From Planctomycetota bacterium (GTDB lineage: Bacteria; Planctomycetota; UBA1135; UBA2386), in NCBI GenBank assembly GCA_965228735.1, contig OZ245838.1:1920001-1984000 (forward strand): a stretch of 64,000 nucleotides of DNA. Direction: 5' to 3'. Of this stretch, positions 5,905 through 63,607 are shown piece after piece. A program made the position numbers and the translations under genes. Every line of letters starts with the position of its first letter. The stretch's first letter is position 1. The notes below the pieces were generated by a model, which had not been told where the DNA came from, did not search any database, and saw only the letters and a list, made by a program, of their open reading frames with translations.

Positions 5905-8178
5905 TCACTTCACGACCGGCACCGACAGACGACGTGTGCTCTCGAACTGCGAGCCGTTGAGGATCCAATCCTGGAAGTGCAGGGTCGTCGGCGGGAGCCA
6001 CTCGGGCAGCGGAAACCGCCACACCACGTCGTCGCCGACCCGGAAGCCCATGTTGCCCAGGTAGGCCGGACCCGTGTCGATCAGCAGCCGACATCCCGTG
6101 AGCACGCCCGGGTTCACGACCGGCAGGTCCGCCGCGGCGAGCGAAACCGCCAGGAAGTGGCCGGCGCTCGCCGGGAGCTGCACGCGCACGCCGCTGAACT
6201 CCGCGCCGATCTGCTGGTTGCCGGCCCAGGTTATCGGAGCCGGGTTGCACCCGGCCCCGCCGTTGCTCCAGGGCGCGGGCGTCGCGTACTCGAGCGTGTG
6301 GCCGTACTGACGGGTGAACGACCCCGACCGAACGCCGTAGAAGAACAGCGTCTCGCTGTCGTCCCGCTTGAACGTGCACGCCGGCGGCGTCGTCGACTGA
6401 CCGGCCACGCCGTTCAACGTGAATGGGCCTTCGGTCGGCGCGCCGTTGAATCCGACGCGCACACCATAGGCGCCGTTGACCGGCGCGAGACTCGTTCGAT
6501 AGGCCGCGACGAAGTGCGACTGATCCCACTCGTCGATCGACATCGCGGAGGGTTCGAAGATGCGATTCGTGGCGCTCGCGATCGTGACCGTCGGATAGTC
6601 GGGTGACGGCGCAGTGGTGTCGAATCGCTCGATGCGGAGCTCCTTGCCGAGCGCCCCGCTGGTGCTCGGCGTGCTCGCGACGTCGACCGTCGAGAACGCG
6701 ACGGCGAAGCGACCCCACACGCCGGCGATGACGGGCGCGAGCTGATGGTGGGAGTTCGCGATCGCGATGTCGGGACTCCACGCCCCGAGGACGTTGCCGT
6801 TGATGTCGTACAGCTCCGCGACGACGACCCAGGCGTCACCGGGCACGCCGGACCTCCGCAACTGGAACGCGCAGGCCCAGCGGTTGTCGCCGCCACTGAC
6901 CTGGTTCACCGCCGGGCGTTCGCAGTCCAGGTTGCCGAAATCATGGATCTCGAACGTCGGCGAGAACGCGACCGTGCCGGACGTCGACAAGGTCGCGCCG
7001 CGGATCGCGCTGTCGGGCACGTTCGCCAGGTGGCCAGCGGAGTTCGAGTTGTCCTCCCGCTGGAAGACGACGAAGGCTCTCGGGTCCCACCCAGCACCGA
7101 CGTCCGGTCGCCAGTCGTTGTACCCCGATGGCGGGATCAACGTGACGACGGCCGGCGAGAAGGTCGTCGATCCGGCGGGATGCACGTGGGCCTGGATGAA
7201 GCTGCGGCGGATCGGATTGTTCATGAAGTAGCGCCGATACACGAGCGCCCAGCGTTGGCTGGTATGAACGAACGCGCAGCTGATCGCGTCGGTGTCCCAC
7301 GACGAGCTCAGGTCGCTGAAGACGATCGATCCGTTCGTGAAGTCATCGTCGAAAACCGCGCCGTAGACATCGTCGTCGAACTGCGAAGCCGCTCGCGTAT
7401 ACACGGTCATCACGTTCGAGCTCAGCGATCCGAGCTCGTGGCCAATGTCGTTCTGGCCGCCCTGCAGCGTGGACGAGAACAGCCAGACGCGACTCAGCAG
7501 CGGATCGACGGTCACGGGCAGCTGCGCCTCCGCGAGCCAGCTTCCCGGCACGGTCAGGGTGATCTCGCCGCCGCGATACCCGGTCGTGACGAGCACGTGC
7601 CGGCCGCTCGCATCGAAAGCGAACGCCTCGCCATAGCCGACGACCGGTCGCCCCGCGGCGTCCGAGAACGTCAATGACCGATGCGCCGCGGTGACGTCGT
7701 CGCTGACGAGCGCGCTCGTGACCGCCCCTCGCACGACGAGGTCACCCGCGGCGGGCCGCTCGCTGACGACGAACGACTGCTCGAGCCCGCCCACCATCAC
7801 GTCGTAGGCCTCGGTGACGTTGCCGAACCGGTACTCGAAGCGGAAGTCGTCGTGCCACTGCCGTGGCGGTCCGGAGCCCTCGAGGAGTTCGACCCCGCCG
7901 ACCGCGACGGACAGGGTCCGCCACGACCACGGCTGGTTGTGCGGGTAGTCGGCGCCGAGGTACGGCACGAACGTCATGCCGTCGTGGAACGATGCCTTGA
8001 AGGTATTGCCCGCGCCCCAGGTGCCGTATGCGACCCCTTCGGCGCCTGCCCCCGTGTGGATCGGAGTGCGGAGCGGCGCCACGGGGCGGCCGGTTCGCGC
8101 CCGGTCGGGTGCCGTCTGGGCATCAGCGATTCCTGCGAGCGCGAGGCACGCCAGGACTTGGAATGCGAGGTGATGCAT
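5905..8178 (-). CDS. Large secreted protein with shared two-Cys C-terminal domain
   Basis: Signal peptide (..GIADA/QT), beta-rich body, C-terminal GAGC...LTGC...LP...FQDW. Confidence 0.8.
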   Translation of the reverse strand: MHHLAFQVLACLALAGIADAQTAPDRARTGRPVAPLRTPIHTGAGAEGVAYGTWGAGNTFKASFHDGMTFVPYLGADYPHNQPWSWRTLSVAVGGVELLEGSGPPRQWHDDFRFEYRFGNVTEAYDVMVGGLEQSFVVSERPAAGDLVVRGAVTSALVSDDVTAAHRSLTFSDAAGRPVVGYGEAFAFDASGRHVLVTTGYRGGEITLTVPGSWLAEAQLPVTVDPLLSRVWLFSSTLQGGQNDIGHELGSLSSNVMTVYTRAASQFDDDVYGAVFDDDFTNGSIVFSDLSSSWDTDAISCAFVHTSQRWALVYRRYFMNNPIRRSFIQAHVHPAGSTTFSPAVVTLIPPSGYNDWRPDVGAGWDPRAFVVFQREDNSNSAGHLANVPDSAIRGATLSTSGTVAFSPTFEIHDFGNLDCERPAVNQVSGGDNRWACAFQLRRSGVPGDAWVVVAELYDINGNVLGAWSPDIAIANSHHQLAPVIAGVWGRFAVAFSTVDVASTPSTSGALGKELRIERFDTTAPSPDYPTVTIASATNRIFEPSAMSIDEWDQSHFVAAYRTSLAPVNGAYGVRVGFNGAPTEGPFTLNGVAGQSTTPPACTFKRDDSETLFFYGVRSGSFTRQYGHTLEYATPAPWSNGGAGCNPAPITWAGNQQIGAEFSGVRVQLPASAGHFLAVSLAAADLPVVNPGVLTGCRLLIDTGPAYLGNMGFRVGDDVVWRFPLPEWLPPTTLHFQDWILNGSQFESTRRLSVPVVK

Positions 8179-8642
8179 CCTGCCCTAGGGCGGGACTCGC
8201 GCCGATCTGACCGCCCGCGCCCTGATTTTTCGGGCTCTCCTGAGCTGAATGGGCGTGCGACGCAGCCAGGCAAGCGACTCCCGCGCGCAGGAGTGCTTCA
8301 TCGTCGCGGGGTTGGCGACGCCCGCCGAGCCCAGGCCACGCCCCCATCGCTTTCCACGCAGTCACGGCTTGCCGCTGCGAGGGACACGCTTGTGACGGTT
8401 GCCGCATTGGCCGCGGGCCGCACCCGGACCTTGCTCCCGGTAAGATGGCCTCGCCGGGCAACCGGTGATCCTCAAGCATGGATGTGCGGCACCGTCGATC
8501 TCGCGATCGGCGGTGCCGTTTTCACCGGGACCCGGCCGAGACGTGAGTAGGACGTTCGGGGCCTAGATGAGGATCCCTTGAATCCATGCTTTCTGACCGG
8601 CCGGGAAGATCGCATTGGGTGCCCCCGGTCGCTCGGCGAGGC

Positions 8643-9011
8643 TCAGAGGAACCACCGCAGCAACCGCGCGATCGCGTGAAGGGCGTGACCGACGCCCGAA
8701 TCACCTCGAACCAGATACGCAGCAGCTGCGCAGAAGAGGAGGAAGACGAGCACGCGAATCACGTTCTTCGTCGGCGAGTCGCTGTCTTCGGCGGCCTCGG
8801 GTTCGGGCACCGGCATCGCGAAAGGTCGTGGCTGCGGCGTGAATCCGAGCCCGACGACTCCGACCAGAACCAGCAAGACCACCCCGAGGGTGACGAAGCC
8901 GATCCCAGCACCGCACACCAGCGCCAGAACGACGGCCAGGATCAACGCGACGACCACGAGGACGACGAGCGTCCGGCGAGTCGCCTGAGCCTCGGTGCGC
9001 TCCTTCGACAC
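8643..9011 (-). CDS. Small multi-pass membrane protein
   Basis: Three strongly hydrophobic segments; GTG 9011 chosen as start. Confidence 0.6.
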   Translation of the reverse strand: MSKERTEAQATRRTLVVLVVVALILAVVLALVCGAGIGFVTLGVVLLVLVGVVGLGFTPQPRPFAMPVPEPEAAEDSDSPTKNVIRVLVFLLFCAAAAYLVRGDSGVGHALHAIARLLRWFL

Positions 9012-9117
9012 GCGCAGCAGTGTCGGCGCTTCCTCGTGAACGGAACAGCCCCAACGGCCCCGAATCGGCGCGTCGCAGCCCACCCGAGGGCTAGCCTGCA
9101 GCACCCCGACCACCGCC

Positions 9118-9498
9118 ATGCGCCGCAGAGAACCGAAGCCGAAGACGCGCAAGCCGACGCCACTGCCGGCTGACCTGCAGGCGTTTCTCGCCGAAGTCCA
9201 CGGCCGGATCGAGGCCGGGGACGAGACCACGCTGGTCGAGTCCGACGACTTGCTGCAGTGCGCGAACGCCTACGGCGGTCGCTGCGTCGGCGGCAACGGT
9301 GAGTTCGGGTTCACCTACTTCCCGGAGTCCAGCGCCCGCCCGGGATGGGAGTTCGTGCTCACCGCCGCGGAGATCGGCCACATCGCACGCCGCGCCGTGA
9401 CGCAGCTCGAGCTGTGGTGCTGCGAAGCGCCCGGCTGCACGTTCCGTTCCTCGCTGCAGGACGACACGTGCCGTGTGCACGACTGGGTCGACGAGTAA
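9118..9498 (+). CDS. Hypothetical protein with C-terminal Cys/His cluster (possible Zn site)
   Basis: ...WCCEAPGC...TCRVH; protein-like composition. Confidence 0.6.
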   Translation: MRRREPKPKTRKPTPLPADLQAFLAEVHGRIEAGDETTLVESDDLLQCANAYGGRCVGGNGEFGFTYFPESSARPGWEFVLTAAEIGHIARRAVTQLELWCCEAPGCTFRSSLQDDTCRVHDWVDE

Positions 9499-9565
9499 CT
9501 GCGCAGCAACTAGACCGTTCCCGAGTGCGACCGTGGCCGGCGGCACGGCGGGCGACACCGACGTC

Positions 9566-12064
9566 TCAGTTCCCCACGATCATCCTGGCCGCATCCGACA
9601 TCACCGCGCCGGCCTGGTTCGCTGCCGAGTCGAGAACCACGCACTGACTGTAGAGCGTCGTGCCGAGATAGGAGACGCTGCTCGGGATCGCGATCCCCCA
9701 CGTGGCGACGTTGTTCTGGCCGACGAGGAACGTGACGCGGTCGAGGCTGACGGACAGCGCGCAGCCGGCAAGACCGAACGGATCGAGCAACAACGGCAGC
9801 GACCCGAGGAGCGAACTCGTGTCGCTGAAGCCCACGACCAACAGGCCAGCGTCCTGCGGCATGTTCGTGACCTGGGCCGTCATCGTCGCGCCGAGCCGGG
9901 GCGGCTGAATCGCGACGTTGCCGGGCACGCCGAGGGTGCCGCCGCAGCCGGTCGCGAATGTGGAGTAGATCGGCAGACAGGTCTCGAAGCGGGCGGCTGC
10001 CGGACTCACGACGCTGCCGGCTCCCGTGAACCAACCGCCGGCAACGACGTCGCCGCCCGGAGTCACGACCAGCGCGTTCACCGCGGGCGAAGGCGAGAAC
10101 CAGCCGGCGACGCCGGTGTCGAGCGGCGACCAGGCGGTGCCGTCCCAGCGCGCGACGTAGTCGGCCGCGACGCCGCCAGCGGTCGTGAACCAACCGCCCG
10201 CGACGAGTTCGCCGCTCGGCAGCGCCGCGAGGGCGAGGACCGGCGAGAAGTAGGGTATCGCGCCGGTGTTCGTGCCGCCGCCGAGCGCTGACCACGTGAC
10301 GCCGTCCCAACGCGCCACGTGATTGGCGGGAACGCCACCCGCCGCCGTGAAGAAGCCGCCGACCGCCAGGTCCCCGTTCGACAGGACCGCGATCGCCTCG
10401 ACGACACCGTTGACCCCGGCGCCGAGCGCGGACCAGGCGTTGCCGTCCCAACGCGCAACACCGTTCGCCGGAGCTCCCCCCGCCGTCGTGAAGCTGCCGC
10501 CAGCCACGACGTCGCCGTTGTCGCTCGCCGCGAGCGCGAGCACGGGGGAACTCGTCCCCGCCCCCAGGGCCGACCAGGCGCTGCCGTCCCAGCGCGCGAG
10601 GTGATTCACGGTCAGCCCGCCGGCCGTCGTGAAATCGCCGCCGACGATGAGGTCGCCGTTGGGCAGGACCGCGAACGTCCGGACCGCGCCGTTCGTGCCG
10701 ACACCGAGCGGCGACCAACCGACCCCATCCCAGCGCGCGATGTGATTCACCGGGAGGCCACCGGCAGACGTGATCGCGCCTCCGGCGACGAGGTCACCGT
10801 TCGGCAGGGACGCCAACGCGAACACCCAGCCGTGCACCCCCGACCCGAGCGCAGACCAGCCGCTGCCATCCCAGCGCGCTACGTTGTCGCCGGTCACGGC
10901 ACCGTTGAGCCAGCCGCCCGCCACGACGTCGCCATTCGGCAGCGCCGCGAGGGCCCAAACGACCTGATCGAACCCCGCGGCGAGGGCAGACCACGTGCTA
11001 CCGTCCCAGCGCGCAACGTTCTTCGCAGGAACCCCACCGGCAGCACTGAACGCGCCGCCAACGATCAGTTCACCGGTCGCCAGAGTCGAGACCGTCCACA
11101 CTGAAGAAACGGCGATCCCCGCGCCGAGGGGCGACCATCCGGTCCCGTTCCACACTGCGATGCCGTCGATGGCGACGTTGCCCACCTGCCCGAACGTGCC
11201 GCCGGCCACGACGTCGCCGTTCGGCAGCGTCGTGAGCGCATACACGCCGTTGGTCGGACCAGCGCCCAATCCCACCCAGGAGCTGCCGTTCCAACGCGCA
11301 ACCCCGCCGGTCGGCAAGTTGGGTCCGCCCGCCACGACGTCACCGTTCGGCAGGGCGGTAAGCGCACGAACCGAGCCGGTCAGCCCGGGGCCGAACGCCG
11401 ACCAGTTCATGCCGTCCCAGCGCGCCACGTTGTTCGCCCCGAGTCCGCCGGCCTGCGTGAAGTTCCCGCCGACCACGATATCACCGCCGGGAAGCCGCAT
11501 CAGCGCGTGCACGGTGCCGTTCACGCCAGCCGCCAGCGGCGACCAGGCGGTCCCGTTCCAACGCGCGACACCATTCGCCGGCAAGCCGCCGGCCGTCGTG
11601 AAGCTGCCGCCGACGAGGACGTCACCGCCGGGCAGCGTGATCAGCGCGTTCACGTCGCCGTTCGTCCCGGCCCCGAGCGCAACCCAACCCGTGCCGTTCC
11701 AACGCGCGATGTGATTCGCGCTCACCCCGCCGGCCGTCGTGAACTGCCCCCCGGCCACGAGGTCACCGTTCGCCACCGCCGCCACCGCGAACACCGAGCC
11801 GTCCAGGCCTGCGCCGAACGCCGACCACGCGCCGGTCGCCGGATCCCAGGCCGCGAGATCGTCGCCGCGGATCGTTCCGGCCGCCCAGAACCGGCCGCCC
11901 ATGACGAGCCGCGAGGCGGCCGGCCCCGGGCCATCGGGGTCCCACATCGCCGTGGCGTGCACCGCGCCGTTGACGCCCGGAAGACCGCCCATCGAGGTCC
12001 ATTGGTCGCACTGAGCCGTGACGACGGAGGCGGCGGTCAGGGCGCAGGTGACGAGGAGGCGCAT
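9566..12064 (-). CDS. Secreted beta-propeller-repeat protein with shared two-Cys C-terminal domain
   Basis: Signal peptide MRLLVTCAL...AQ. More than 12 repeats of ~49 aa (V.AL..LPNGD.V.GG.FT.AGG..AN..ARWDG..WS.LG.G). Confidence 0.9.
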   Translation of the reverse strand: MRLLVTCALTAASVVTAQCDQWTSMGGLPGVNGAVHATAMWDPDGPGPAASRLVMGGRFWAAGTIRGDDLAAWDPATGAWSAFGAGLDGSVFAVAAVANGDLVAGGQFTTAGGVSANHIARWNGTGWVALGAGTNGDVNALITLPGGDVLVGGSFTTAGGLPANGVARWNGTAWSPLAAGVNGTVHALMRLPGGDIVVGGNFTQAGGLGANNVARWDGMNWSAFGPGLTGSVRALTALPNGDVVAGGPNLPTGGVARWNGSSWVGLGAGPTNGVYALTTLPNGDVVAGGTFGQVGNVAIDGIAVWNGTGWSPLGAGIAVSSVWTVSTLATGELIVGGAFSAAGGVPAKNVARWDGSTWSALAAGFDQVVWALAALPNGDVVAGGWLNGAVTGDNVARWDGSGWSALGSGVHGWVFALASLPNGDLVAGGAITSAGGLPVNHIARWDGVGWSPLGVGTNGAVRTFAVLPNGDLIVGGDFTTAGGLTVNHLARWDGSAWSALGAGTSSPVLALAASDNGDVVAGGSFTTAGGAPANGVARWDGNAWSALGAGVNGVVEAIAVLSNGDLAVGGFFTAAGGVPANHVARWDGVTWSALGGGTNTGAIPYFSPVLALAALPSGELVAGGWFTTAGGVAADYVARWDGTAWSPLDTGVAGWFSPSPAVNALVVTPGGDVVAGGWFTGAGSVVSPAAARFETCLPIYSTFATGCGGTLGVPGNVAIQPPRLGATMTAQVTNMPQDAGLLVVGFSDTSSLLGSLPLLLDPFGLAGCALSVSLDRVTFLVGQNNVATWGIAIPSSVSYLGTTLYSQCVVLDSAANQAGAVMSDAARMIVGN

Positions 12065-12238
12065 GGGTTTGGAATAGTCCGGGTTCCGGGCCAACGTCAC
12101 GCCGTTCTCGGGTCGGCCGAGTCTCGGCGGTCCGAGGCGATCGACTGGGCCCCCGGCCGCCGAACCGCAGCCACGCGAACGGAATCCACCCTCCGCCGGT
12201 ATCCTCTGACAGCGCCCTCACCCGCCACCCAACACCCC

Positions 12239-13063
12239 ATGAGCTACTTCGCCGACGAACCCGACCTCAACGATCCCACGCACTGCCAGGTCACCGAACT
12301 CGAACGGGACGTCGAGATCGCCGACGGGGTCACCGTCGAGCGCCGCAGCGTGCTCCTGCTGTCCGCCGCCGCGGTCGGGGCGATGCTGACCGGCTCGCGC
12401 ACCGTGCGCGCCCAAGACCCGAGACCACAGAACCCGAAGCCACAAGGCCCCGAGGCAACACCGTCGAACGGGCTGACCTACGAGGAGTTCCTCGCCGAGG
12501 TCCTGCCGCAGTCGCGCCAGCTGCTCAGCAACGCGGGCAAGGGCGAGAGCGCCTACCTGATGACGGTCGCGGCCGCGATGCTGCGCATCCGCGATCACGA
12601 AGCGCCTCTACGCCAGACGATGCAGGCGTTCCGCAAACAGCACGCGACCGATGGCGAACGATTTCCGCTGTCGGCCATGGCGATGAAGCTCGGCGCCGGC
12701 AAGGGCTTCAAGCATCACGATCACCTCGACTACAACGGCGTGATCCTCGGCATCGAGGGCGAGGTCCGGATCCGCAACTACGACTTCGTCGGCGAGGCGC
12801 CGGCGCTGGATTCGGAGAAGACGTTCGAGATCCGCGAGACGCGCGACGAGCTGATCCTGCCGGGCGGGATCTCGACGCTCGGCAGCAAACGGAACAACGT
12901 CCACGACCTCGTCGCCGGCAAGGAGGGCGCGCGCGTCCTCGACGTGTTCACGTTCTTCAGCAAGCGCGCGACGTCGCGCTGGCTCGACGTCGAGCCCGAG
13001 CCCGTCGACGCCGAGCGCCGCGTCTACGAGGCGCGCTGGCGGCCGCGGCGTCGCCGGCGCTGA
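12239..13063 (+). CDS. Tat-signal cupin, PCO/ADO (thiol dioxygenase)-like
   Basis: ERRSVLLLSAAAVG...VRA/Q signal. Cupin motifs HHDH...GEVRIRNYD...NNVH...ARVLDV resemble the PCO/ADO HxH...GNxH...AVLDV arrangement. Confidence 0.7.
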   Translation: MSYFADEPDLNDPTHCQVTELERDVEIADGVTVERRSVLLLSAAAVGAMLTGSRTVRAQDPRPQNPKPQGPEATPSNGLTYEEFLAEVLPQSRQLLSNAGKGESAYLMTVAAAMLRIRDHEAPLRQTMQAFRKQHATDGERFPLSAMAMKLGAGKGFKHHDHLDYNGVILGIEGEVRIRNYDFVGEAPALDSEKTFEIRETRDELILPGGISTLGSKRNNVHDLVAGKEGARVLDVFTFFSKRATSRWLDVEPEPVDAERRVYEARWRPRRRRR

Positions 13064-13065
13064 CG

Positions 13066-13497: not shown

Positions 13498-13568
13498 GAG
13501 GCGTGGCGGGCGGCCGCGCCGTTGACTTCGGGGCAGTCTACCCGTCGCATCGGGGGCAGAATCGACCG

Positions 13569-20591: not shown

Positions 20592-23306
20592 TCAACGAAG
20601 CGTCCGCGCCGGCCGCAGCCCCAGGTCGGCGATGTTCGTCCACTTGCTACGACGGTCGCGCTTCGCAACGCGCAAGTCCTGGGGTCGCGTCAGGTACGCA
20701 CCGCCACGAAGCTGCCGAAAGCCGGGATGGCCACCACTGTGCCGACCGTCCCCTGCGGCGTGCGGCACGGAGTACCCGACCGGGGTATCGAGGCACCATT
20801 CGCCGACGTTGCCGAGCATGTCGTGCAGTCCGAACGCGTTCGGGCGATAGCTGCCGACCGGGGCGACGTGCACGACGCCGTCGTCGAGAGCCCACGCCAC
20901 CGGGTTGGAGGCCGCGGTCGACGGCTCGTGCTGCATGTAGACCCGGTCGTAGCAGTTCACGGCGCCGGCCAGCGACGCGGGGTCGTCGCCCCACGGGTGA
21001 ATGGTGCTCGAGCCGGCTCGGGCCGCGTACTCCCACTGCGCTTCGGTCGGCAGCGTCAGTCCGAGCGCGCGGGTGACCTCGTCGCAGCCGACCCAATGCA
21101 CCGTTTCGACCGGATCGCGCGGCCCGAAATCGTTGAAGTCGTCGTGCGTGCCGCGCAACTGCCCGGCTCGGCGGCCCGTGAAGAACCGCCACTGCGCCTT
21201 CGTCATCTCGAACTTGGAGAGCAGGAACGGGTCGAGTTCGACCTCGTGAACGGGCCGCTCGATCGAAACGGACCCCGGATCGACGTTCGCCGATCCGGGC
21301 GGGTGACCCGCGTCCGGCAGCCGCGCTCCCATCCAAAACCGACCACCCGGCAACAGCACGAAGACGAGGCCCACGTCGTCGGTCAGGACCAACTCGCCGT
21401 CGTCGTCCCGTTCCGCAATTCGTCCCGTCTGCGGATGCCCGAACTCGTGGTATCCGGTCCGCGGATCGCGACCGAGCGGGACGAGCCCGATCTGCGGGGC
21501 GATCGCCAGGCCACCGTACCACGGACTGGTCTCGAGGTTCGCGATGTCCGCGACCACCTGCGACCAGAGCTCCGCGTGCTCGTCGATCGTGATGCGCGCC
21601 AGCCGCGGCACGATCTCCAACCACCGCGCCACCGTGTGGAGTGATCCCGACTCGGGATCCGAGAACTCGTCGCAGAGCGCGAGCACCCGAGTCAGGCTCT
21701 CGTGCTCCCATTCGTCCGCCGGGTCGGCGAAGCGCCATGGCTGCCCCACTTCGGCATCGATCTCGGCCAGCCGTCGTTCGAGCGCGGCGATCTCCTGCCG
21801 CTGCGCCGCCGTGGGAGTCGCCCCGAGTTCGGACCGCCGATGGTCCAGCCGGTGGCCGAGCTCGCGGCGTTCGTCCCAGGTCGGATGGCGCCGGCGATGC
21901 CGCTCGATGTCGGCCGCGACGTTGACGAGCGCCCGCCGGCGAACGGCTGCGAGCGCGCGGGCGTGCAGCGGCCGCCGCGCGACAGCCGCGCGCCCCTTCG
22001 CGAGCCAGACGCGCAGTGTGTCGGCGTCCGAAACGCGCGCCGCCGGGAGGTGGGCGAATTCGTTCTGCAGTTGCTCGATCAAGCGCCCATCGGCCAGTCG
22101 CCGGAGATCGCCCACGGTCTCGTCGAGCGCCCGGTTCTGCCGCAGCGTCGCCACGAACGCCACCACCACGGTGATGAACAACGCCGCCCCGAGTCCGGCC
22201 GGCAGCGGGTTGCGGCGCACGAACTTGCGGAGCCTGACCCACGCCGATGCCGGCCGCGCGACGATCGGACGATCGGCGAGCACGCGCCGCACTTCCGCCG
22301 CGAGTTCGGGCACCGAGTGGTAGCGGCGGCTCGGATCCTTGTCGATCGCCGTGGCAAGGACGACCGCGAGATCACCACCGAGGCGGCGATCGCGGCGTCC
22401 CAGCGGCACCGGCTCGGTCTCGACGATCGTGCGGGCCGCGGTCGCGACGTCGCGCCCGTGGACCTCGAACGGCAACTGGCCCGTGAGCAACTCGTAAGCG
22501 ATGACCCCGAGCGACCAGACGTCACTGCCGACAGTCACCTCGTCGCGACGCCCCTACACCTGCTCGGGGCTCATGTAGGCGAGCGTTCCGACCATGCGGC
22601 CGGCGTCGGTCAATCTCGTGCCATTGGCGCCGTCGCCGTCGATCGCACGCGCCACGCCGAAGTCGAGCACCTTGGGCTCGCCCGCAGCGGTGACCAGGAT
22701 GTTGTCCGGCTTGAGGTCCCGATGGAGCACACCTTTGTGATGGGCATGAGCGACGGCGTCGCAGATCGCAACGAACAGCTCGAGACGTTCGCGTCGCCCG
22801 ATCCGACGTTCGTCCACGTACTCGTCGAGCGGCTGCCCCTCGACGTACTCCATGGCGAAGAACGGCGCCACCCCGTCGCCGTCGCGATACGTTCCGGATC
22901 CGAAGACCTGCGTGATGCCCGGGTGCTGCAGGCTCGCGAGCGCCTCGACCTCGTACTCGAAGCGCCGCGCCAGCCCGGGCACCGTTCCGGCCCGCATGAC
23001 CTTCAGCGCGACGCGGCGGTTGGGTTGATCCTGGATCGCCTCGTAGACCACCCCCATCCCGCCGGCGCCGATGCGGCGCACGATCGTGTACTCGGCGATC
23101 CGCCCCGGCACCGCATTGCACTCGATCGCCATCGGCGTCGCCCCGATCACGTCGACCTCGGCATGGGCCAACAAGGATCGCACTTCGGCGAGCAACTCCG
23201 CGTCCGCGCCGCAACGTTGCTCGACCCAGGCCGCTCGCGCCGCGCGGTCGACGTCGAGCGCGGCGCTGACGACGTCCCAGGCCGTTCGGAACCGGCGGGC
23301 ATCCAT
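20592..23306 (-). pseudogene. Ser/Thr kinase-TM-FGE/SUMF1-domain fusion interrupted by one in-frame TAG (22554-22556)
   Basis: IGAGGMG, VALK, HRDLKPDN, DFG, then YMSPEQV*GRRDEVTVGSDVWSLG in the same frame. C-terminal FGE motifs LPTEAQWEYAAR and GLHDMLGNVGEW. Confidence 0.85.
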
Positions 23307-23310
23307 GCCG

Positions 23311-23883
23311 CTACTCCGCCTCGTCGGGTCGGAGCTCGCGCGCGAGCCAACCGCGCGCGATCGCGAGGTCCTTGTCGATCGTTCGTCGCGACACACCGAC
23401 GACCAGCGCGATCTCCTCACCCGTCATGTTCGCAAACACGTGCATCTCGAGAACGCGAGCCGGCCGCGGGTGCAGCCCGGCCAGCTGCTCGAGCAGGTCA
23501 TCGACGGCCAGAACGTCGAACGCGCGGTCGGGCACGGCCACGTCGCCGACCGTGATCGCGGCGCGCGGACCACCGCGCTTCTGCGCGTTGCGGCGGCGGG
23601 CATGATCCACGAGGATCTGACGCATCAGCCGAGCCGCCACGGCGGCGAACTTCGCCTTGTTCTCGAAGCCGCGCGCTTCGGCTCCGGCGAGCCGCACGTA
23701 GGCCTCGTTGACGAGCGCCGTCGGCTGGATCGACTGGGCGCGCTGCTCCCGCTCCAACAGCCGCGCCGCGAGATCGCGCAGCTCGTCGTAGACCAGGGGA
23801 ACGAGCTCCTCGGCCGCGCCGTCCTCGCCCGCGACCAGCAGATCGAGCAATCGATGCGTTCTGGCGTGTGGGGAATCGGACAT
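23311..23883 (-). CDS. ECF sigma factor, kinase-associated (TIGR02999-like) type
   Basis: LVPLVYDELR.LA, QPTALVNEAYVRL, MRQILVDHAR...KRGG; directly upstream of the kinase. Confidence 0.9.
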   Translation of the reverse strand: MSDSPHARTHRLLDLLVAGEDGAAEELVPLVYDELRDLAARLLEREQRAQSIQPTALVNEAYVRLAGAEARGFENKAKFAAVAARLMRQILVDHARRRNAQKRGGPRAAITVGDVAVPDRAFDVLAVDDLLEQLAGLHPRPARVLEMHVFANMTGEEIALVVGVSRRTIDKDLAIARGWLARELRPDEAE

Positions 23884-35198: not shown

Positions 35199-36305
35199 TC
35201 AGTTGCCGATCAGGCCTTCTTCACCGTTCGACAACGCGAACCCCGCGGCGTTGCCCGCCGTGAACGCGATGCTCTGCACCGTGAGCCGCACGCCGACGAA
35301 GGCCGGCCCGGCCGGGATGTTCACCGGCACGACGGTCGTGCCGTTGACCGCTGGCGCCACGGCCTGGTTGAGGATCGACCCGAGCGGGATGTTGATGTCG
35401 CATCCCGGCGCCGGGTAGTTGAGCGTCGTCACCGGCAGCGGCGGGTCCTGCCGGCCGAGCGCGAAGTAGGTCACGGCGAGCGGCGAGCTCGCGTCGACTC
35501 CGGTCGTCGTGAGCTCCCACGTGTTGCCGACGAGCGGCGGCATCGTGCTCGCGAGCGTCAGCCCATCACAGCCGGCGCCGAACGACTCGGTCGAGGCGCA
35601 CCCCGTGCCGCCCGGCGTGTGGATCACCGTCCACCCCGCCGGCGACGGCTGCATGAGGATCGAATCGTTCCCCATGTCGAACGACTCCGCCGTCGTGAAC
35701 TCCTCGAACGTCGTGAGATCGGTCGTGACCGGGCTCGTCGAGAAGTCGACGCTGGCCGGCAGCGCGGCGGGCGTTCCGGGCGAGACCCCGATGACGCCGG
35801 TCTGCGACGTCTGGTACGTGGAGTTGTTCGTCACGTTCGGCCCGTAGACGAACTCGATGTTGCCCGAGTCGAACAGCTTGAGCTGGAACGCCATCTGGTT
35901 GTTCGGGATCCCGAAGCTCTCGACGTCGACCCACGTGACGGTGCAGACCGTGCCCTGCGCATCGATATAGACGTCACCGATGATCGTGAGGCCCGGGATC
36001 GTGTCGCTCCAGAACGGGCAGATGACCGGACCGTTCTGGACGAGGCTCGCCGCCGCCGGCGTGAACACGAGCGGCGACGCCGCCGGCAACGCGGGCTGGC
36101 CGTTGTCCGTGAGGAAGCAGATGCCGTGATCGGAGACGTGGATCTCGTTGTACGTCGCGCCGGCGAACGGGAAGTTGAAGCCGATCGGGTGGGGACCGTT
36201 GATCGAGTCCTGCACGATGGCGATCGGTGCACCGGGCGGCGTGATGCACTGCGCGCACACGACGGACGAGAGGAACAGAGCAGCCAGGATCGGCGACGTA
36301 CGCAT
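35199..36305 (-). CDS. Secreted protein (nidogen-like N-part) with shared two-Cys C-terminal domain
   Basis: IGFNFPFAG..Y...VSDHG, ICPFWSD, FQLKL...GNIEFVY; C-terminal FGAGC...PGC...IP...G....Q...SNG...IGN. Confidence 0.8.
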   Translation of the reverse strand: MRTSPILAALFLSSVVCAQCITPPGAPIAIVQDSINGPHPIGFNFPFAGATYNEIHVSDHGICFLTDNGQPALPAASPLVFTPAAASLVQNGPVICPFWSDTIPGLTIIGDVYIDAQGTVCTVTWVDVESFGIPNNQMAFQLKLFDSGNIEFVYGPNVTNNSTYQTSQTGVIGVSPGTPAALPASVDFSTSPVTTDLTTFEEFTTAESFDMGNDSILMQPSPAGWTVIHTPGGTGCASTESFGAGCDGLTLASTMPPLVGNTWELTTTGVDASSPLAVTYFALGRQDPPLPVTTLNYPAPGCDINIPLGSILNQAVAPAVNGTTVVPVNIPAGPAFVGVRLTVQSIAFTAGNAAGFALSNGEEGLIGN

Positions 36306-55912: not shown

Positions 55913-55988
55913 CCCAGGAGTCCCGCCACCGCGCGGAAAACGACGATTTCGCGTAGCATGAACGCGCTGCCGGCGGAAGGCAGCCCAG

Positions 55989-58814
55989 ATGATCCCGCAG
56001 CGACTCAAGGCGAGACTCGGCAAACCCGACCGGCTCCTGCGGCGGTTCTGTCGCACGGGTGACCCCGCGGCGCTCGGCGCGCTCTTCGATCACGCGGCGC
56101 CGGAGCTGCTGCGGGTCGCGGCGTGGCTGTCCGGCAGCCGCACGGATGCGGAAGATCTCCTGCAACGCACGTTCGTGACCGTCATCGAGCGGCGCGAGAA
56201 CTACGACAGCAAGCGCGCGGCGCTGCCATGGCTCTGCGGCATCCTCGGGAATCACGCCCGCAAGCTGAAGGACAAGCGGGCGCGCGAGGTGCGACACCAC
56301 CGCCACCTCGTGACCGAGGCGAGCGACGGCTCCGTGACCCTGACGGATCCGTACGACACGGCCGCCGAACGCGAGGTCGTCGCGGTCGTCGATCGCCTGC
56401 GGCAGGAACTCGACTCGCCGTACCGCGAAGTTCTCGATCTGCACCTCGGGCGTGGACTCGGCCCGGCCGAGATCGCGGCGCGCCTCGACCGTCCACCCGG
56501 CACGGTGCGCACGCAACTCGTGCGCGGCCTCCAGCGCCTGCGCGATCGCATGCCGCTGTCGATGTTCTCGCCGGTCGCGGCTGTCGCGATGCTCAGCGGC
56601 ACCGAGGCGGCGGCGCAACTCACCACGATCCGTGACGCGGTCATGCGCGTCGCGGAGGCCGCGCGGCCACCCGGCCCGGTGCCGGCGAGCGGACCGTTCG
56701 GCCTGTCCGGCGCGCTGCCCACGGTCGCGGCGATCGCGACCGTCGCCGTGATCGGCGGCGGCATCGCGGCCTACCTGGGATTCGGTCGGTCGACGACCGA
56801 ACCGGCGCCGACCGGTCCGGCGGTCGACGTCGCCGCCACGACGCCCCGGAGCGCCGCGACGACGCCGGGCGCACACCTCGATCGCGCGGCCGCCGGTCGA
56901 GCCCCGACGGTCAACCCACTGGCCGCGAACGCGGGCGCCGCCGCCGCGACCGGGCGCGATATCACGGTCCGCGTCGTCGACGACGCGGGCGCCCCCGTGC
57001 CCGCCGCCGAGCTCTGGCTGTCCGAGCCCCACATCGCGACGCGCGGGGCGAGCATCGGCCCGAGCGACGCCGCCGGCTGCCGGAAGCTGACCTTCGACGC
57101 CGCCCGCTTCGTCGGCGCGCGCCACCCGAATCACGTGCGGTCCTATCTCGCCCTCGTCGATCCGGCGACCGCGGGTGACACCGTGACGATCGCGCTGCGC
57201 GGCGGCAGCGCGCCGTTCCGCGGTCGGGTGTTCGATGCCGCGGGCGCGGCGCTGCCCGGCGCGACGATCGCGCTCGGCCCGCCGGGCGGCTGGCGCTTGA
57301 CGAACTCACCGCACCAACGCACGGTCTACCCGCCGCGCGCGGCCGCGACGACGGACGCGACCGGGCGCTTCGCGGCGTTCGGGCTCGAACCGGGCCCGTC
57401 CGACCTCGAGATCCGCGCCCCGGGGCACGCGCCGCTCGCGCTCCGGGTGCAGGTTCCCGAACCCGCGCGCACATTGCCCGAGATGACGTTCCGCCTGCAG
57501 CGCGGCGCGACCATCGCCGGGCGCGTCCGCCACCTCGACGGTTCGGCCGCGGGTGGCGCGAGCATTACCGCGATCGACTCGGACGGCCGCCAGACGCACA
57601 CCACCGCGGACGCCAGCGGCGACTTCGCGGTCGACGGCCTGGCCGCGGGCCAGCACGAGGTGCGCGCAGCGGCAACGACGGCCGCCGCGACCGAAGCGAT
57701 GGCGCATGCGGACCTCGAGACCCGGCTCGGGGGGACGACGCGCTGGCACGCGACGTTGCACCCGACCCGCGAGATCCACGGTCGCGTCGTCGGACCCGAC
57801 GGCGCGCCGGTCGCCGGCGTGCAGGTGCTGGCGGGCGAACCGACGATGGAGGCCGGCATCGCCGGAGCGACGACGGCGGTCGACGGTCGATTCGCGGTGA
57901 CGACGACGGCCCGCCGCGCCCGGACGGGCACGCTCTACCTCCGGCGCGACGGTGCGCCGATCGCGGTGCGACGCGACGTGATCCCGGCCCCGGGCTCGGC
58001 CGCGGCCGGCAGCGAGCTCGTCATCGAACTGTCGGCCGACGAGGCCCCGACGTCGACGCTCCGCGGGCGATTCGTCGATCCGTCGGGTCGACCGATCGCC
58101 GCCTCGATCTCGGTCACCAACCACGCGTTCACGGTCGGTTGGTACGCGTTCACGAACCCGGGGACCGGGACGTTCCGACTCGGCCCGCTGCGCCCCGGCA
58201 GCTATACGCTGATCTTCGAGGCGAAGGGCTACGGGCGCGTGCCGGTGCGGGCGCTCGCCGCCGCGCCCGGCGAGAGCCGCGATCTCGGCGACATCGTCGC
58301 GCAGCCGGCCGGCTCCGTCGAGCTCACCCTCGCGGGCGCGAGTTCGGGCGAACGTCGACTCGTCAAGTTCGCGCGGCGGGACGGCGTCGTGTCCCACGTG
58401 TTCACGGACGGGCGGCCCGTTCGCGCGGAACTCGCGCCGGGCGACTACGTGGCGAACATCGCGCTCGGCGATGGCGCCGGCAGCAGCGTCGCGTTCACCG
58501 TCACGGCCGGAACCACCACTGCCGTCACGCTGCCGTGCACGACGAACCACCTGCTCAGCGTGCGGTGCTCGTTCGCGCGGGCGGCCGGACCCGCGGGGCG
58601 GCGGCTCGACATTCGCATCACGGATGCAGCCGGCAACCTCGTCGACGCCCACGAGCTGGCCTGCACGACCGCGGCGACCGCCGAACTCAAGGTCCACCTG
58701 CCGCCGGGCGAGTACCGGCTCGACTGCCGGTGCACGGCCGGACTGGCGGCGACGGCGAACGTCTCGATTCGGTCCGGTGGTCAAGCCCCCATGCGACGGT
58801 TGCAGCTGCGCTGA
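55989..58814 (+). CDS. ECF sigma factor fused via TM to CarboxypepD_reg-like extracytoplasmic repeats
   Basis: DAEDLLQ..F, PWLCGI, EIAARL..PPGTVRTQL.RG; TM; G.V....G.P..GA repeats. Confidence 0.88.
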   Translation: MIPQRLKARLGKPDRLLRRFCRTGDPAALGALFDHAAPELLRVAAWLSGSRTDAEDLLQRTFVTVIERRENYDSKRAALPWLCGILGNHARKLKDKRAREVRHHRHLVTEASDGSVTLTDPYDTAAEREVVAVVDRLRQELDSPYREVLDLHLGRGLGPAEIAARLDRPPGTVRTQLVRGLQRLRDRMPLSMFSPVAAVAMLSGTEAAAQLTTIRDAVMRVAEAARPPGPVPASGPFGLSGALPTVAAIATVAVIGGGIAAYLGFGRSTTEPAPTGPAVDVAATTPRSAATTPGAHLDRAAAGRAPTVNPLAANAGAAAATGRDITVRVVDDAGAPVPAAELWLSEPHIATRGASIGPSDAAGCRKLTFDAARFVGARHPNHVRSYLALVDPATAGDTVTIALRGGSAPFRGRVFDAAGAALPGATIALGPPGGWRLTNSPHQRTVYPPRAAATTDATGRFAAFGLEPGPSDLEIRAPGHAPLALRVQVPEPARTLPEMTFRLQRGATIAGRVRHLDGSAAGGASITAIDSDGRQTHTTADASGDFAVDGLAAGQHEVRAAATTAAATEAMAHADLETRLGGTTRWHATLHPTREIHGRVVGPDGAPVAGVQVLAGEPTMEAGIAGATTAVDGRFAVTTTARRARTGTLYLRRDGAPIAVRRDVIPAPGSAAAGSELVIELSADEAPTSTLRGRFVDPSGRPIAASISVTNHAFTVGWYAFTNPGTGTFRLGPLRPGSYTLIFEAKGYGRVPVRALAAAPGESRDLGDIVAQPAGSVELTLAGASSGERRLVKFARRDGVVSHVFTDGRPVRAELAPGDYVANIALGDGAGSSVAFTVTAGTTTAVTLPCTTNHLLSVRCSFARAAGPAGRRLDIRITDAAGNLVDAHELACTTAATAELKVHLPPGEYRLDCRCTAGLAATANVSIRSGGQAPMRRLQLR

Positions 58815-58867
58815 CCAATTCGGACCCGGGCGTTACTCCGCATCTCGCGCGCCATAGTATCCGTGAC

Positions 58868-59500
58868 GTGGATGCCCATCAGATTCGCTCCGACATCGCG
58901 CTCGCGCGCCGCGGTGAAACCGAGGCGCTCGACCGGGTGCTGAAAGCCCTCGAGTCGCGACTGCGCGCGGCAGCGACCAACCGACTCGCTGGTCATCTGC
59001 GGGCCCGCATGGGCACCTCCGACCTGCTGCAGTCGACGATGCTCGACATCGCGAAGAACATCGGCGATTTCCGCGGCGAGAACGCGGACCAGCTGCTCGC
59101 GTGGTCGGGGCGCATCATGGACAACAACCTGCGCGACCGCGCCCGCTTCTTCGGTCGCCAGCGGCGACGCGGCGAACACGGCGCCGAGGTGCCGCCCGAC
59201 GCGGTCGCTTCGGGCCCGACGCCGAGCTTCGAAGCGATGCGCGTCGAGCACATCGAGGCGCTGTATCGCGCGCTCTCCGAGCTGCCCGACGACTACCAAC
59301 AGATCCTGCAGCTGCGTGAGTTCGAGAAGCGCGAGTACGACGAGATCGCCGCGACGCTCGATCGCTCGGAAGGCGCCGTTCGGATGCTGATCTCGCGCGC
59401 TCGCGCCGCGCTCTACGTCAAGCTCGACCGCATGCTCGGTGACGACGACGACGGCAACCGCAGTGGCGGCCCCGACCGCGATCGTGGCGATGCCGGCTGA
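58868..59500 (+). CDS. ECF sigma factor, kinase-associated (TIGR02984-like)
   Basis: LRARMGTSDLLQST, TPS..A, LPDDYQQIL.LR, EIAATL.RSEGAVR..ISRAR. Confidence 0.88.
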   Translation: MDAHQIRSDIALARRGETEALDRVLKALESRLRAAATNRLAGHLRARMGTSDLLQSTMLDIAKNIGDFRGENADQLLAWSGRIMDNNLRDRARFFGRQRRRGEHGAEVPPDAVASGPTPSFEAMRVEHIEALYRALSELPDDYQQILQLREFEKREYDEIAATLDRSEGAVRMLISRARAALYVKLDRMLGDDDDGNRSGGPDRDRGDAG

Positions 59501-62297
59501 GCCCAAGGGCGGGTCCGGCCCGTCCCGCCCCGACGACGAGGCCCAGTTCGAGACCCAGCTCGAGCAGCTGCTCGAGAGCTGGTTCCTGCGCCTCGAAAAC
59601 GGCGAAACGCCCGCACCCGACCCGACGGCGCACTGCGCCGAGCATCCGCACATCCTCGCCGCGTTCCTGCGCGTGCTCGGCCATTCGGAAGCCGTCGAGC
59701 ACATGCTCGGCAGCGGCAAGCCCGAGAGCGACCCGGACCGTTCGATGCCAGAACGGCTCGGCGAGTTCGAGGTGCTGCTGCCGATCGGCAGCGGCGGCGC
59801 GGGTAACGTCTACCTGGCGCGCCAGACCTCGCTGCAGCGGCTCGTCGCCCTGAAGGTCCTGCGCCCGAGCGGCGACCTGCGCAGTCGTCAGCGACTGCGT
59901 CGCGAGGCCGAGGTCGCGGCCTCGCTCGAGCACCCCGGGATCGTGCCGATCTACGGCGTCGGCGAGGACGGCGACCGCGCGTGGATCGCGATGAAGTGGC
60001 TCACCGGTCCGGCGCTCGACCAGGTCGACGCGCCGCTCGACAGCAAGCGCGCGGCGACGATCGTGGCCGCGGCCGCGCGCGCGCTGCACGAGGCCCACAC
60101 GGTCGGCATCGTCCACCGTGACATCAAACCGTCGAACCTCGTCCTCGATCAGGAGAGTCCGTGCATCGTCGACTTCGGCCTGGCCCGCGACGGCGACCAG
60201 ACCGTACGGACGACGCTCGAAGGCCACGTCGCGGGCACGCTGCTCTACATGTCACCGGAGCAGCTCAGCAGCGGTGGCGGCTCGACGACGACGCTCGACG
60301 CGCGCACGGACATCTACTCGCTCGGCGCGACGCTCTACGAGCTGCTGGCCGGACGCCCGCCGTTCGAGGAGGACCTGCCGGCCAAGGTCATCCACCGGAT
60401 CCTGTACAGCGAACCACCGGCGCTCGAACGGATCGCCGGCATCGACCGCGACCTCGCGACGATCACCGGGCGCGCCCTCGACAAGGACCGCGAACGCCGC
60501 TTCTCGAGCGCGCTCGCGATGGCCGAGGACCTCGAGCGCTACCTCGCGGGCGAGTCGATCCTCTCGCGACCCGTCGGCCTGACGACGCAGCTCGTTCGAT
60601 TCACGCGCAAGAACCGGCGAGCGACGATCACCGTAGCCTGCGCCGGGCTCGTCGCGATCGTGCTCGCGATCGTCCTCGCCTGGAACGTGCAGCAGCAGAG
60701 TCTCACGCGCGCGGCGACGCTCGCCGACGTCGCGACGCGCATCGACAGCGGCGAACTGCTCGTCGCGCGCGGCCTGCTCGCGCCGCTCCTGGCCGAGGAC
60801 GGCGGCGACGCCGAAGACCTGAACGAGCTGCACGCCCGACTCGTGGCCTGCGAGCGCCTCGAGGACCTGCTCGACCAGGTGCAGGCGTTGCCCGAGGACA
60901 CCATCGGCCCGGAGCTCGAAACGGCACTGGCCGGCCTCGTCGACGACGACCTGCCCGCCGACCGCCGCCTCGCCGCGCGTTTCGTGCGGCCGCTCGGACT
61001 CGCGCTCGCCGGCAAGGTCGATGACGCGATCCCGCTCGCCCGCGCGCTGCCCGAGGGTCGCGCGCGCACGGCGCTGATGCTCGCATTCGGCGGCCACGAG
61101 ACCTGGGACCTGCCGGCGAGCGACGACTCGGCCGATCCGCCGCTCGAACACCTGTTCACGGTGCTCGCGATGCGGTTCGCGAACCGCCCCCTGCCCGAGC
61201 GCCGGGCCGAGATCGATCGCGGCCGAGCGATCGCGTTCGGCGATCCGCGCCTGCGGCTGCAGCACGCGATCCAGTACATCAACGACGACGAGCACCGGCT
61301 GGCCTACGAAGCCCTCAGCGGCGTGCGGCGCGACGGCTCCTACCCGCTCATCGTGCGTCGCCTGCTCATGCGCGAGGCCGTCTGGGTCGATGACCCGGTC
61401 GCGGCGAGATCGCACCTCGACGCGTTGCTGCGCGACTTCCCGCGCGCGAGCTGGTCAGCGTTCGAATCGGCCAGCGTGCTCGAGACGCAGTACTGGCTCG
61501 ACGTGGTCGATCCCGACCTGCTCGCGTGGGCGCGCGACCGATGGCCCGAGAACTGGCTCATCGCCGTGGTCGCGGCCCGAGAACTCGTCACCTCGGACTG
61601 GCAGGCTGCTGCCGCGTTGCTCGCGGACACCGACCAGTTCGCTCGCAACCCCGATCAACGCGAAGAATCGGTACTGCTGCGGCTCTACGCCCTCGCTGCC
61701 CCGCTCCGGAGTTTCTGGGCGCCGACCCAGACCGAGCCGAGCACCGACGAGGCCGAACGGCTCGAGGAACTCGAGCAGGCAGCTGCCGACTTCGCCGAGA
61801 CGGCCACCGATCCCGAGCGCATGGTCGCCGCCAGGATCGTGCAGTCCCGATCCCGGCTCGCTCGCGGCGACTGGGAAGGCGCATTCGCCACGCTCGAGGC
61901 GATCACCGTGGACCCGGCGCCCGAGAAGACCCTCGAACTCGGCATCCACGCGCACAACTGGTTCGCGCACGAGACCCGCAGGGTGCAGGCGTCACCGTGG
62001 GGCCTCGCGATGCTCGAACGTGCCGAGGCGACGTACGGCGGCCGCTACAACCAACGGATGCGCGCGCTCCAAACGGTGTTCGCCGAACTGCTCTCGTCGA
62101 TGCCGAGTCGCCAGCGCATTCTCGGTCGTCCGAGCCGCGCGCTGGCCTACCTGCTGCATGCGGAGTTCTCGCTGTTTGCCCGCGATCCGGACGCCGCTCG
62201 CGAGTCCGTCGAACGAGCGCGTCCGCTCATCTCCCCCGAACTGGACTCGGGCGAGTCGGGCATGCTGCAGATCATCGAACGCCTGTTGTCACGCTGA
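59490..62297 (+). CDS. Membrane Ser/Thr protein kinase with helical C-terminal region
   Basis: IGSGGAG, VALK, HRDIKPSN, DFG, GTLLYMSPEQ, TM; overlaps the ECF stop. Confidence 0.92.
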   Translation: MPAEPKGGSGPSRPDDEAQFETQLEQLLESWFLRLENGETPAPDPTAHCAEHPHILAAFLRVLGHSEAVEHMLGSGKPESDPDRSMPERLGEFEVLLPIGSGGAGNVYLARQTSLQRLVALKVLRPSGDLRSRQRLRREAEVAASLEHPGIVPIYGVGEDGDRAWIAMKWLTGPALDQVDAPLDSKRAATIVAAAARALHEAHTVGIVHRDIKPSNLVLDQESPCIVDFGLARDGDQTVRTTLEGHVAGTLLYMSPEQLSSGGGSTTTLDARTDIYSLGATLYELLAGRPPFEEDLPAKVIHRILYSEPPALERIAGIDRDLATITGRALDKDRERRFSSALAMAEDLERYLAGESILSRPVGLTTQLVRFTRKNRRATITVACAGLVAIVLAIVLAWNVQQQSLTRAATLADVATRIDSGELLVARGLLAPLLAEDGGDAEDLNELHARLVACERLEDLLDQVQALPEDTIGPELETALAGLVDDDLPADRRLAARFVRPLGLALAGKVDDAIPLARALPEGRARTALMLAFGGHETWDLPASDDSADPPLEHLFTVLAMRFANRPLPERRAEIDRGRAIAFGDPRLRLQHAIQYINDDEHRLAYEALSGVRRDGSYPLIVRRLLMREAVWVDDPVAARSHLDALLRDFPRASWSAFESASVLETQYWLDVVDPDLLAWARDRWPENWLIAVVAARELVTSDWQAAAALLADTDQFARNPDQREESVLLRLYALAAPLRSFWAPTQTEPSTDEAERLEELEQAAADFAETATDPERMVAARIVQSRSRLARGDWEGAFATLEAITVDPAPEKTLELGIHAHNWFAHETRRVQASPWGLAMLERAEATYGGRYNQRMRALQTVFAELLSSMPSRQRILGRPSRALAYLLHAEFSLFARDPDAARESVERARPLISPELDSGESGMLQIIERLLSR

Positions 62298-62620
62298 CCG
62301 CCGTGACTCTGGTGTCGGGTGCCAGAAGTTCGTATTCGGCGGCGCTCGAGGACGTTGCGCGCCTGCTCCGATCGCGGCATCGACAGGCGGCACCGCGGCC
62401 TCAACCCCCGCCGCAACCGCCGGTTCGGCGGCGGCCATGCAGCAGGCGCCCAGCAGGCACGGTTGCGCTGCGCGGGATCGGCGCCATCCGCCTGCCCTCG
62501 ATCGGTCCGCGCAGTGCCCTTGACCGCTCTGCGCAGGGTGTTTAGCGAAGAACGAAGCAGCGCCGGTTCGACGTTCGGACCATCACGGCGCCGCGCCACC
62601 GCTCCCTCAGTCTCACTGCC

Positions 62621-63607
62621 ATGCTCAGAACCTCGCTTCGCACCGTCGTAGCCGCGCTGCTTGCGCTGGCGCTCCTGCAGAGCGCCATCGTCGGCCAGAC
62701 CTACTTCCACATTCCGTCCGACACCCCCGCCACCGGCACGTGCAACGTGTTCCCGTGGGGCCAGTCGAGCACCCGCCACCAGCACATCGTCACGGCCGCC
62801 GAGCTCGGCAACGCCGCCACGACGATCAACGACATCGCGTACGCGGCGTGCAACAACGGCACGTTCACGTGCTCGCAGATCCTGATCCGGATGGATCACT
62901 ACACGGGCACGACACTGAACGGAACGTTCGCCTCGAACCTGTCGGCGAACCCGACGACCGTGCTCAACGCGACCAATTGGAGCTACCCGTACGCCCAGCA
63001 CACCTGGGTCGACGTCGGCCTGACGAACCCGTTCAGCTACGACCCGTCGCTCGGCAACCTCGTGATCGACATCGAGTTCTGCGGCGCGTCCGGCGGCAAC
63101 TCGTTCCATCGTGACATCTCACCGCGCTGCTGGAGCAACGGCGGTCCCTGCCCGTCGAACGCGTCCGGCACGGCCGCGATCGGCGCCCTCAAGGTGCGGG
63201 TCTCGACGGGCACCGACGGCAACCACTCGGTGTACGGCCAGGGATGCGGCACGCCCGCGCTGACGCTCTCCGGTTCGGGCATCCCGAACATCGGCGCCAA
63301 CTCGACGACGATCCTGAGCAACGGCACGCCGTCCGCGCTTGCCGCCTACGGCGTCGGCCTGTTCTCGGCGAACACCAGCCTTGCCAGCATCGGCGCACCG
63401 GGCTGCACGATGTACACGAACCCGATCGCGACCGTGCTCGTGGCGCTCGACGGCTCGGGCACCGCGCCGCCGTTCGACATTCCGATTCCGAACAACGCGT
63501 CGTTCGTCGGCGTCATGCTCTACACGTCGGGGGCCTCGGTCGACCCGCCGCAGAACGCCGCGGGTCTGACCACGGCGAACGGCATCGAGACCAGGATCGG
63601 CATGTGA
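62621..63607 (+). CDS. Secreted protein with shared two-Cys C-terminal domain
   Basis: Signal peptide; C-terminal YGQGC...P.IG...GAPGC...IP...FVG...NAAG...NG...IG. Confidence 0.85.
   Translation: MLRTSLRTVVAALLALALLQSAIVGQTYFHIPSDTPATGTCNVFPWGQSSTRHQHIVTAAELGNAATTINDIAYAACNNGTFTCSQILIRMDHYTGTTLNGTFASNLSANPTTVLNATNWSYPYAQHTWVDVGLTNPFSYDPSLGNLVIDIEFCGASGGNSFHRDISPRCWSNGGPCPSNASGTAAIGALKVRVSTGTDGNHSVYGQGCGTPALTLSGSGIPNIGANSTTILSNGTPSALAAYGVGLFSANTSLASIGAPGCTMYTNPIATVLVALDGSGTAPPFDIPIPNNASFVGVMLYTSGASVDPPQNAAGLTTANGIETRIGM

Follow-up and report, generated by a model that had tools for sequence, protein, structure and literature searches.

An unnamed all-beta tail domain on exported proteins of uncultured Planctomycetota: a candidate dockerin-like docking module

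Within a 64,000-nucleotide stretch of a Planctomycetota genome (the window; positions 1,920,001–1,984,000 of contig OZ245838.1, assembly GCA_965228735.1), four open reading frames (ORFs) encode otherwise different exported proteins that carry the same tail domain (Table 1). The genome under study is termed G000, and other G numbers denote genomes compared with it. A first-pass annotation of the window had singled out these ORFs for their signal peptides and a shared two-cysteine motif, and both are present in all four, but the conserved Gln of the motif is Ser in the gene at 62621. Each protein starts with a hydrophobic signal peptide, and the next residue is Gln (by eye). The ATG start of the gene at 9566–12064 lies within a longer GTG frame that ends at 12100. 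Three of the tails match one another pairwise at ~1e-6 (phmmer, Z=1), and that of the gene at 5905, rightly described before as more divergent, matches these three at only 5e-4 to 0.02 under the same setting. Against a hidden Markov model (HMM) of the family, the four genes score 5.7e-13 to 3.9e-26. The tails thus align significantly, both pairwise and by profile; a fifth carrier was not found in the window with the family HMM.

Table 1. Tail-bearing genes of the window and their domains (iE, independent E-value; SH-aLRT, Shimodaira–Hasegawa-like approximate likelihood-ratio test; Ig, immunoglobulin; FnIII, fibronectin type III; pLDDT, predicted local distance difference test)
Feature	Position	Strand	Remarks
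Exported protein, 757 aa	5905..8178	-	Without Pfam match; 25 carriers in genome linked through its passenger family
Tail domain, divergent subfamily	5908..6285	-	iE 5.7e-13; 7-member group, SH-aLRT 99
Exported protein, 832 aa	9566..12064	-	Passenger is a Rax2/DUF5122 beta-propeller
Tail domain, 134 aa	9569..9970	-	Predicted all-beta Ig/FnIII-like sandwich, pLDDT 97.6
Exported protein, 368 aa	35199..36305	-	Passenger without Pfam match
Tail domain	35202..35594	-	iE 2.1e-19
Exported protein, 328 aa	62621..63607	+	Jelly-roll passenger family (E 2.7e-9); paralogs have the tail domain inserted
Tail domain	63221..63604	+	iE 2.7e-22

The HMM, built from the four window tails and iterated over six-frame ORFs of the genome at a cut-off of iE<1e-4, finds 105 domains in the first pass and 293–298 once iterated, with the best reversed decoy at 0.023; 272 of the 298 end no more than 10 aa from the stop codon. 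A more sensitive search of C-termini finds 357 and then 370 carriers among 5,315 genes, which were called with a purpose-built codon model, and has no decoy below 0.1. The expectation that an HMM of the four tails would reveal many more signal-peptide proteins is thus borne out (298 to 370 of ~5,315 genes), and up to 7% of all genes carry the domain. By a permissive, heuristic signal-peptide rule, 237/296 carriers pass compared with 1,538/3,792 other proteins, and a signal peptide is visible by eye in many of the carriers that fail; with Gln or Glu also required after the cleavage motif, the figures are 219/296 and 748/3,792. Gln directly follows the signal peptide in most G000 carriers, and this residue is the rule at that position in Bacteroidota cargo of the T9SS (type IX secretion system). 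One 144-aa protein (G000:C1:864546-865034, L228) consists of a signal peptide and a tail domain and nothing else.

The domain is found in 40/41 relatives of G000 and in 66 of 301 genomes of the phylum, five of which have a single match. It occurs in 33,053 protein clusters at 50% identity and is C-terminal in 149 of the best 150. Source labels of the matches are those of uncultured Planctomycetota, a lineage that may be linked to OM190/Saltatorellota. The distant genome G196 has 30 domains, 26 of them C-terminal, and 39 by sensitive search. Many of its exported proteins have at their ends shorter tails without cysteines (e.g. L147:17371-18438 and L081:17536-18477), which are domain-like by eye and fall below the profile threshold. 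The cargo of 68 sampled carriers includes Kelch and Rax2-type propellers, S8, M14 and trypsin-like peptidases, beta-lactamase-like proteins, a sulfatase and di-haem peroxidases, and about half of the carriers have no Pfam match at 1e-8. This variety and the limited range within the phylum agree with the earlier view of a lineage-restricted module common to diverse signal-peptide proteins. The family is a real, very large and unnamed domain family.

The domain is ~125 residues long, with a mean column identity of 21% across 82 copies, and Gly27, Pro96 and Gln109 are conserved in at least 90% of these. Of 292 copies, 184 have both family cysteines (Cys9 and Cys70 in the tail at 9569..9970), 64 have none and 44 have a single one; the odds ratio of co-occurrence is 24, although the copies are related and the P value is therefore overstated. 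Because the two cysteines co-vary, the GC-GC disulfide raised as a possibility by the first-pass annotation is probable, but as an optional and dispensable one, both cysteines being absent from the 64 copies. In a quick tree of 63 tails the nearest neighbour shares its passenger in 47/63 cases; there is some reshuffling, and support is low.

The AlphaFold model of the domain (pLDDT 97.6) is all-beta and predicts an Ig/FnIII-like sandwich. It has generic structural matches to domains of the Ig, FnIII and macroglobulin kinds, the best of which has Z 8.4, a root-mean-square deviation (rmsd) of 2.4 and 87 residues aligned, and a match to CBM56 (Z 7.6, rmsd 2.8, 87 aligned) is tied with unrelated Ig folds. 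No match to a domain already characterised was found: Pfam and NCBIfam give no real match for the tails of the four proteins or for 82 domains, nor do PDB sequences (best E 0.19), a plasmid search gives none, and Foldseek finds nothing at E<=0.001. All of 30 ESM Atlas hits are unnamed and from Planctomycetota, and Pfam annotation is blank for all 120 proteins of one listing. A word-index search with the domain profile, a low-sensitivity method, finds just 3 proteins. A description of the domain was not found in titles and abstract openings of the literature, with subscription journals and bioRxiv supplements outside the search; in the available part of bioRxiv 10.1101/817700, secretion and C-terminal domains go unmentioned.

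Several known systems share properties with the tail. PEP-CTERM, GlyGly-CTERM and MYXO-CTERM signals also occur near the C-terminus and many times in a genome, as PMC1569441 describes for PEP-CTERM, but these consist of a short motif, a membrane helix and a basic tail, whereas the present tail is a folded soluble domain. The type A C-terminal domain (CTD) of the T9SS (PF18962/TIGR04183) is likewise Ig-like, usually C-terminal, borne by signal peptidase I cargo and found in the slot behind DUF7948/SBBP passengers. However, the tail is longer, has a cysteine pair and also occurs in inserted and N-terminal positions; with a cut-off of E<0.05, Pfam and NCBIfam match 0/82 domains to PF18962/TIGR04183, and the T9SS CTD is not among the 50 structural matches listed for the domain model. 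Solibacter TIGR03437, a lineage-specific tail of no known function on very many exported proteins of another phylum, is named on homologs of the DUF7948/SBBP passenger, but it matches 0/82 domains in NCBIfam and has an hhalign probability of 0.12 (a small test with 7 sequences). The type I dockerin (PF00404) likewise sits at the end of many different exported proteins and has no membrane segment. It is a helical twin EF-hand, whereas the tail is a 125-aa sandwich without calcium loops, and there is no profile similarity between the two (hhalign probability 0.04). By the tests run, the domain belongs to none of the dockerin, T9SS CTD and CTERM families. Non-cellulosomal dockerins of planctomycetes and a hypothetical cohesin–dockerin ‘planctosome’ are dealt with in PMC6461901.

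In one related genome, dockerin replaces the tail. G027, a member of the same order with 91% completeness, matches neither of two tail profiles and is the sole tail-free genome among those tested in the order. It has 39 PF00404 matches, compared with 0–4 in each of 29 tail-bearing genomes and 0 in G000; the loci noted for this are L236, L244, L248, L254, L255 and L258. All five FG-GAP proteins of G027 end in a dockerin (three by PF00404, two by eye). In addition, an adjacent gene pair (G027:C59) is 49% and 51% identical to an adjacent pair of the genome under study (G000:5452388/5455415), whose members end in the tail; the G027 counterparts end in a dockerin, the first by PF00404 and the second by eye. 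The tail therefore sits in the dockerin slot of syntenic orthologous genes. Among 120 DUF7948/SBBP homologs, two end in the tail domain, and others end in a dockerin, in TIGR03437-named tails, in membrane anchors (by eye), in two cases, which fall below the Pfam PF18962 cut-off, in a Por_Secre_tail-like or FlgD domain, or in nothing. These homologs and the G027 dockerin genes show the tail in the slot where other lineages place anchors and sorting tails, as the first-pass annotation had supposed. An unnamed repeated tail, which has a GDWDG-like motif and may be another anchor, is found at the end of many DUF7948/SBBP homologs.

Contrary to what had been assumed, the position of the domain is not strictly terminal. 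Of 295 carriers classified, 270 have it at the terminus, 12 have 34–45 aa beyond it and 13 have it N-terminally or internally, and internal positions had been named beforehand as a finding that would speak against a sorting or anchoring tail. Among the 25 non-terminal cases is an insertion that lies within a passenger fold and is conserved. In G000:2282327 the extension after the domain is kept in 119/120 homologs, and a profile of these 119 sequences hits the passenger end of paralog 5088276, immediately ahead of the terminal domain (E 1e-7; the next hit has 0.032). It places this one paralog only and not the 62621 gene of the window, and with an earlier 10-sequence passenger profile the extensions were not above shuffles. 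A profile of the front part matches both paralog 5088276 and the 62621 gene and stops 42 and 38 residues before their domains. The AlphaFold model of the inserted form (G000:2282327; pLDDT 96.3) aligns over residues 1–333 with single jelly-roll domains (e.g. 3gbw, Z 7.9, rmsd 3.2, 134/161 aligned), and its Ig-fold matches, at ~173–300, are the tail domain. The domain of these homologs is thus inserted within the passenger fold. Excision would split the passenger, and therefore the domain is probably not cleaved in vivo, to judge by this architecture; a cleavage-like motif before the domain was also not found. Internal and inserted copies weaken the case for a cleaved sorting signal and favour a retained attachment domain. 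Thus, of the proposed export or surface-attachment role, the part that stands is a module in an anchor or sorting-tail slot, but not a cleaved signal of the T9SS or PEP-CTERM type.

Carriers of G000 contain 0.5% Lys, compared with 2.7% in its other signal-peptide proteins, and are rich in Gly, Thr, Ser and Asn. This composition suggests a surface location. Of 430 G000 proteins with carrier-like composition, 330 are carriers. A lipobox pattern is present in 8/330 carriers (about three real by eye) and in 26/100 non-carriers of the same composition, and lipid-anchored proteins are mostly without the domain. A transmembrane segment is found in 5/296 carriers. An expanded family of Big_5 and glycine-rich lipoproteins (G000:C1:2418666, 2655148, 2657890, 2695762 and 5165994; L221, L223, L224) has a paralog, 1245429, that is without a lipobox and has an internal tail domain instead.

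The reading we favour, with a probability of roughly 0.55, is that the domain is a retained module which docks non-covalently on a shared surface receptor, and so does a dockerin-like job with a different fold. Carriers would be exported by Sec and cut by signal peptidase I before Gln, as the sequences and the heuristic count suggest, and would fold in the periplasm, usually with one disulfide. They probably cross the outer membrane by type II secretion, taken as the default because it is the only fitting route found; a gspD-E-F cluster is common to G000 and G196. The domain would then stay uncleaved and bind a common receptor, for which the dockerin analogy makes a protein scaffold more likely than a glycan. 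Lipid-anchored proteins would mostly dispense with it.

Several observations weigh against docking. The swap is seen in a single genome, G027, which is fragmented, is its family's sole member and may be mis-binned, although GC is similar at its dockerin loci and its housekeeping loci (0.47–0.52); dockerin is also lacking from many tail-free genomes. A sorting signal would fit as well with the position of about 91% of copies at the very C-terminus, and three probable lipoproteins carry the domain. Identity is just 21%, and the residues conserved best, which are Gly, Pro and Gln, seem to be structural; a binding patch is not evident. Nor was a receptor found: PF00963 cohesin was not found in five genomes, including G000 and the dockerin-rich G027, in a search whose control rang in 3/14 and which could miss divergent receptors.

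The domain might instead be an uncleaved export handle, read in the periplasm by a type II-like machine and with no role after secretion. This would account for the presence of the domain on nearly all soluble proteins of extracellular composition and for its strong C-terminal bias; there are seven secretin genes in G000, and homologous passengers elsewhere have Por_Secre_tail-like domains in this slot. However, the secretin systems tested are phylum-wide and also present in G027, and no dedicated machine tracks the domain. Docking is preferred, since the domain interchanges with the dockerin, which is a binding module, and the export handle is considered unlikely.

Somewhat more doubtful again is the notion that the domain binds polysaccharide, either of a substrate or of a matrix, or assembles with itself into a lattice on the surface, and needs no dedicated receptor. 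Ig/FnIII sandwiches include carbohydrate-binding modules, among them the CBM56 match given above, a cohesin-like partner was not found, and none of the single-gene partners profiled tracks the domain perfectly. But a conserved aromatic surface pattern is not evident in the profile, the cargo, with its peptidases, sulfatase, di-haem peroxidases and propellers, is too varied for one substrate, and the complementarity with lipid anchors also argues against it.

In the T9SS, PorU cleaves the CTD and cargo is then linked to the lipopolysaccharide A-LPS (PMC5445135). A similar system here, in which a sortase-like protease would cleave the tail and link cargo covalently to the envelope, is improbable: the C-terminal Ig-like domain and signal peptidase I cargo with Gln at +1 recall Bacteroidota cargo and C25 proteases exist in the lineage, but inserted and N-terminal copies occur, no cleavage-like motif precedes the domain, no T9SS family is among 137 exported proteins common to G000 and G196, and no SprA-sized barrel was seen by eye among 19 proteins of at least 1,300 aa. 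SprA searches with TIGR04189 and PF14349 gave 0/5 genomes, but the controls were silent. The C25 protease, profiled on 76 genomes, is not co-distributed with the domain (36/51 tail-bearing and 15/25 tail-poor genomes) and was dropped as a partner; it was not found in the near-closed G013 and G022, and the G000 and G196 copies share just a short match.

The 137 proteins come from a search for partners of the domain: 1,027 genes are common to G000 and G196, 194 of them have a signal-like start, and 137 were scanned. Three candidates were rejected on 46 genomes: a 1,222-aa protein is missing from seven tail-rich genomes and weak in two more, a 788-aa protein is present in G027, G063, G206 and G288, and a secretin pair is found in 42/46. 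A lipoprotein with a Big_5 stalk and a beta-propeller and no family name, termed family X (G000:C1:2569111-2575790 (L222); L065:14581-17526; L256), is a weak candidate for a scaffold. It is present in 60/61 genomes of the order, and at E<1e-20 in 20/21 tail-rich genomes and G027 and in 0/24 others. Family Y, a second family of lipoproteins with an Ig stalk, has a similar but weaker distribution. Family X is intact in G027 and was not found in the tail-rich G029, which also counts against docking on it. Because both families persist in G027, they may only mark the lineage.

A wider proposal is tentative, with the odds against it. Uncultured Planctomycetota of this clade would have an undescribed surface-display system, in which an all-beta dockerin analogue docks hundreds of enzymes and adhesins on one lipoprotein scaffold (candidate family X), and one lineage would have swapped its whole set of tags for true dockerins without a recognisable cohesin. 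The domain marks most of the extracellular proteome in a widespread uncultured lineage, and surface enzymes can therefore readily be predicted from it. Both the exchange with dockerin and the inserted copies sharpen the general idea of sorting or anchoring to a testable claim, i.e. that the tail stays and binds a partner. They also bear on the role of dockerins in bacteria without recognisable cohesins.

A few other loci should be pointed out. A pilin-like cluster at G000:C1:1397583-1414788 (L045) encodes a 1,735-aa pseudopilin-like protein that is conserved in G196 and has no Pfam or NCBIfam match. The best Omp85 match (G000:C1:2878387-2879346, L162) has one in-frame TGA. In the window, two pairs of extracytoplasmic function (ECF) sigma factor and Ser/Thr kinase genes are recognised by eye, at 20592-23850 and 58868-62297. 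The kinase of the former is apparently split across two frames near 22540 (by eye), and the latter pair is directly upstream of the carrier gene at 62621. Also recognised by eye, at window 2353-3590 and 4829-5752, are a two-piece transposase and a gene for a DNA methyltransferase next to the carrier gene at 5905.

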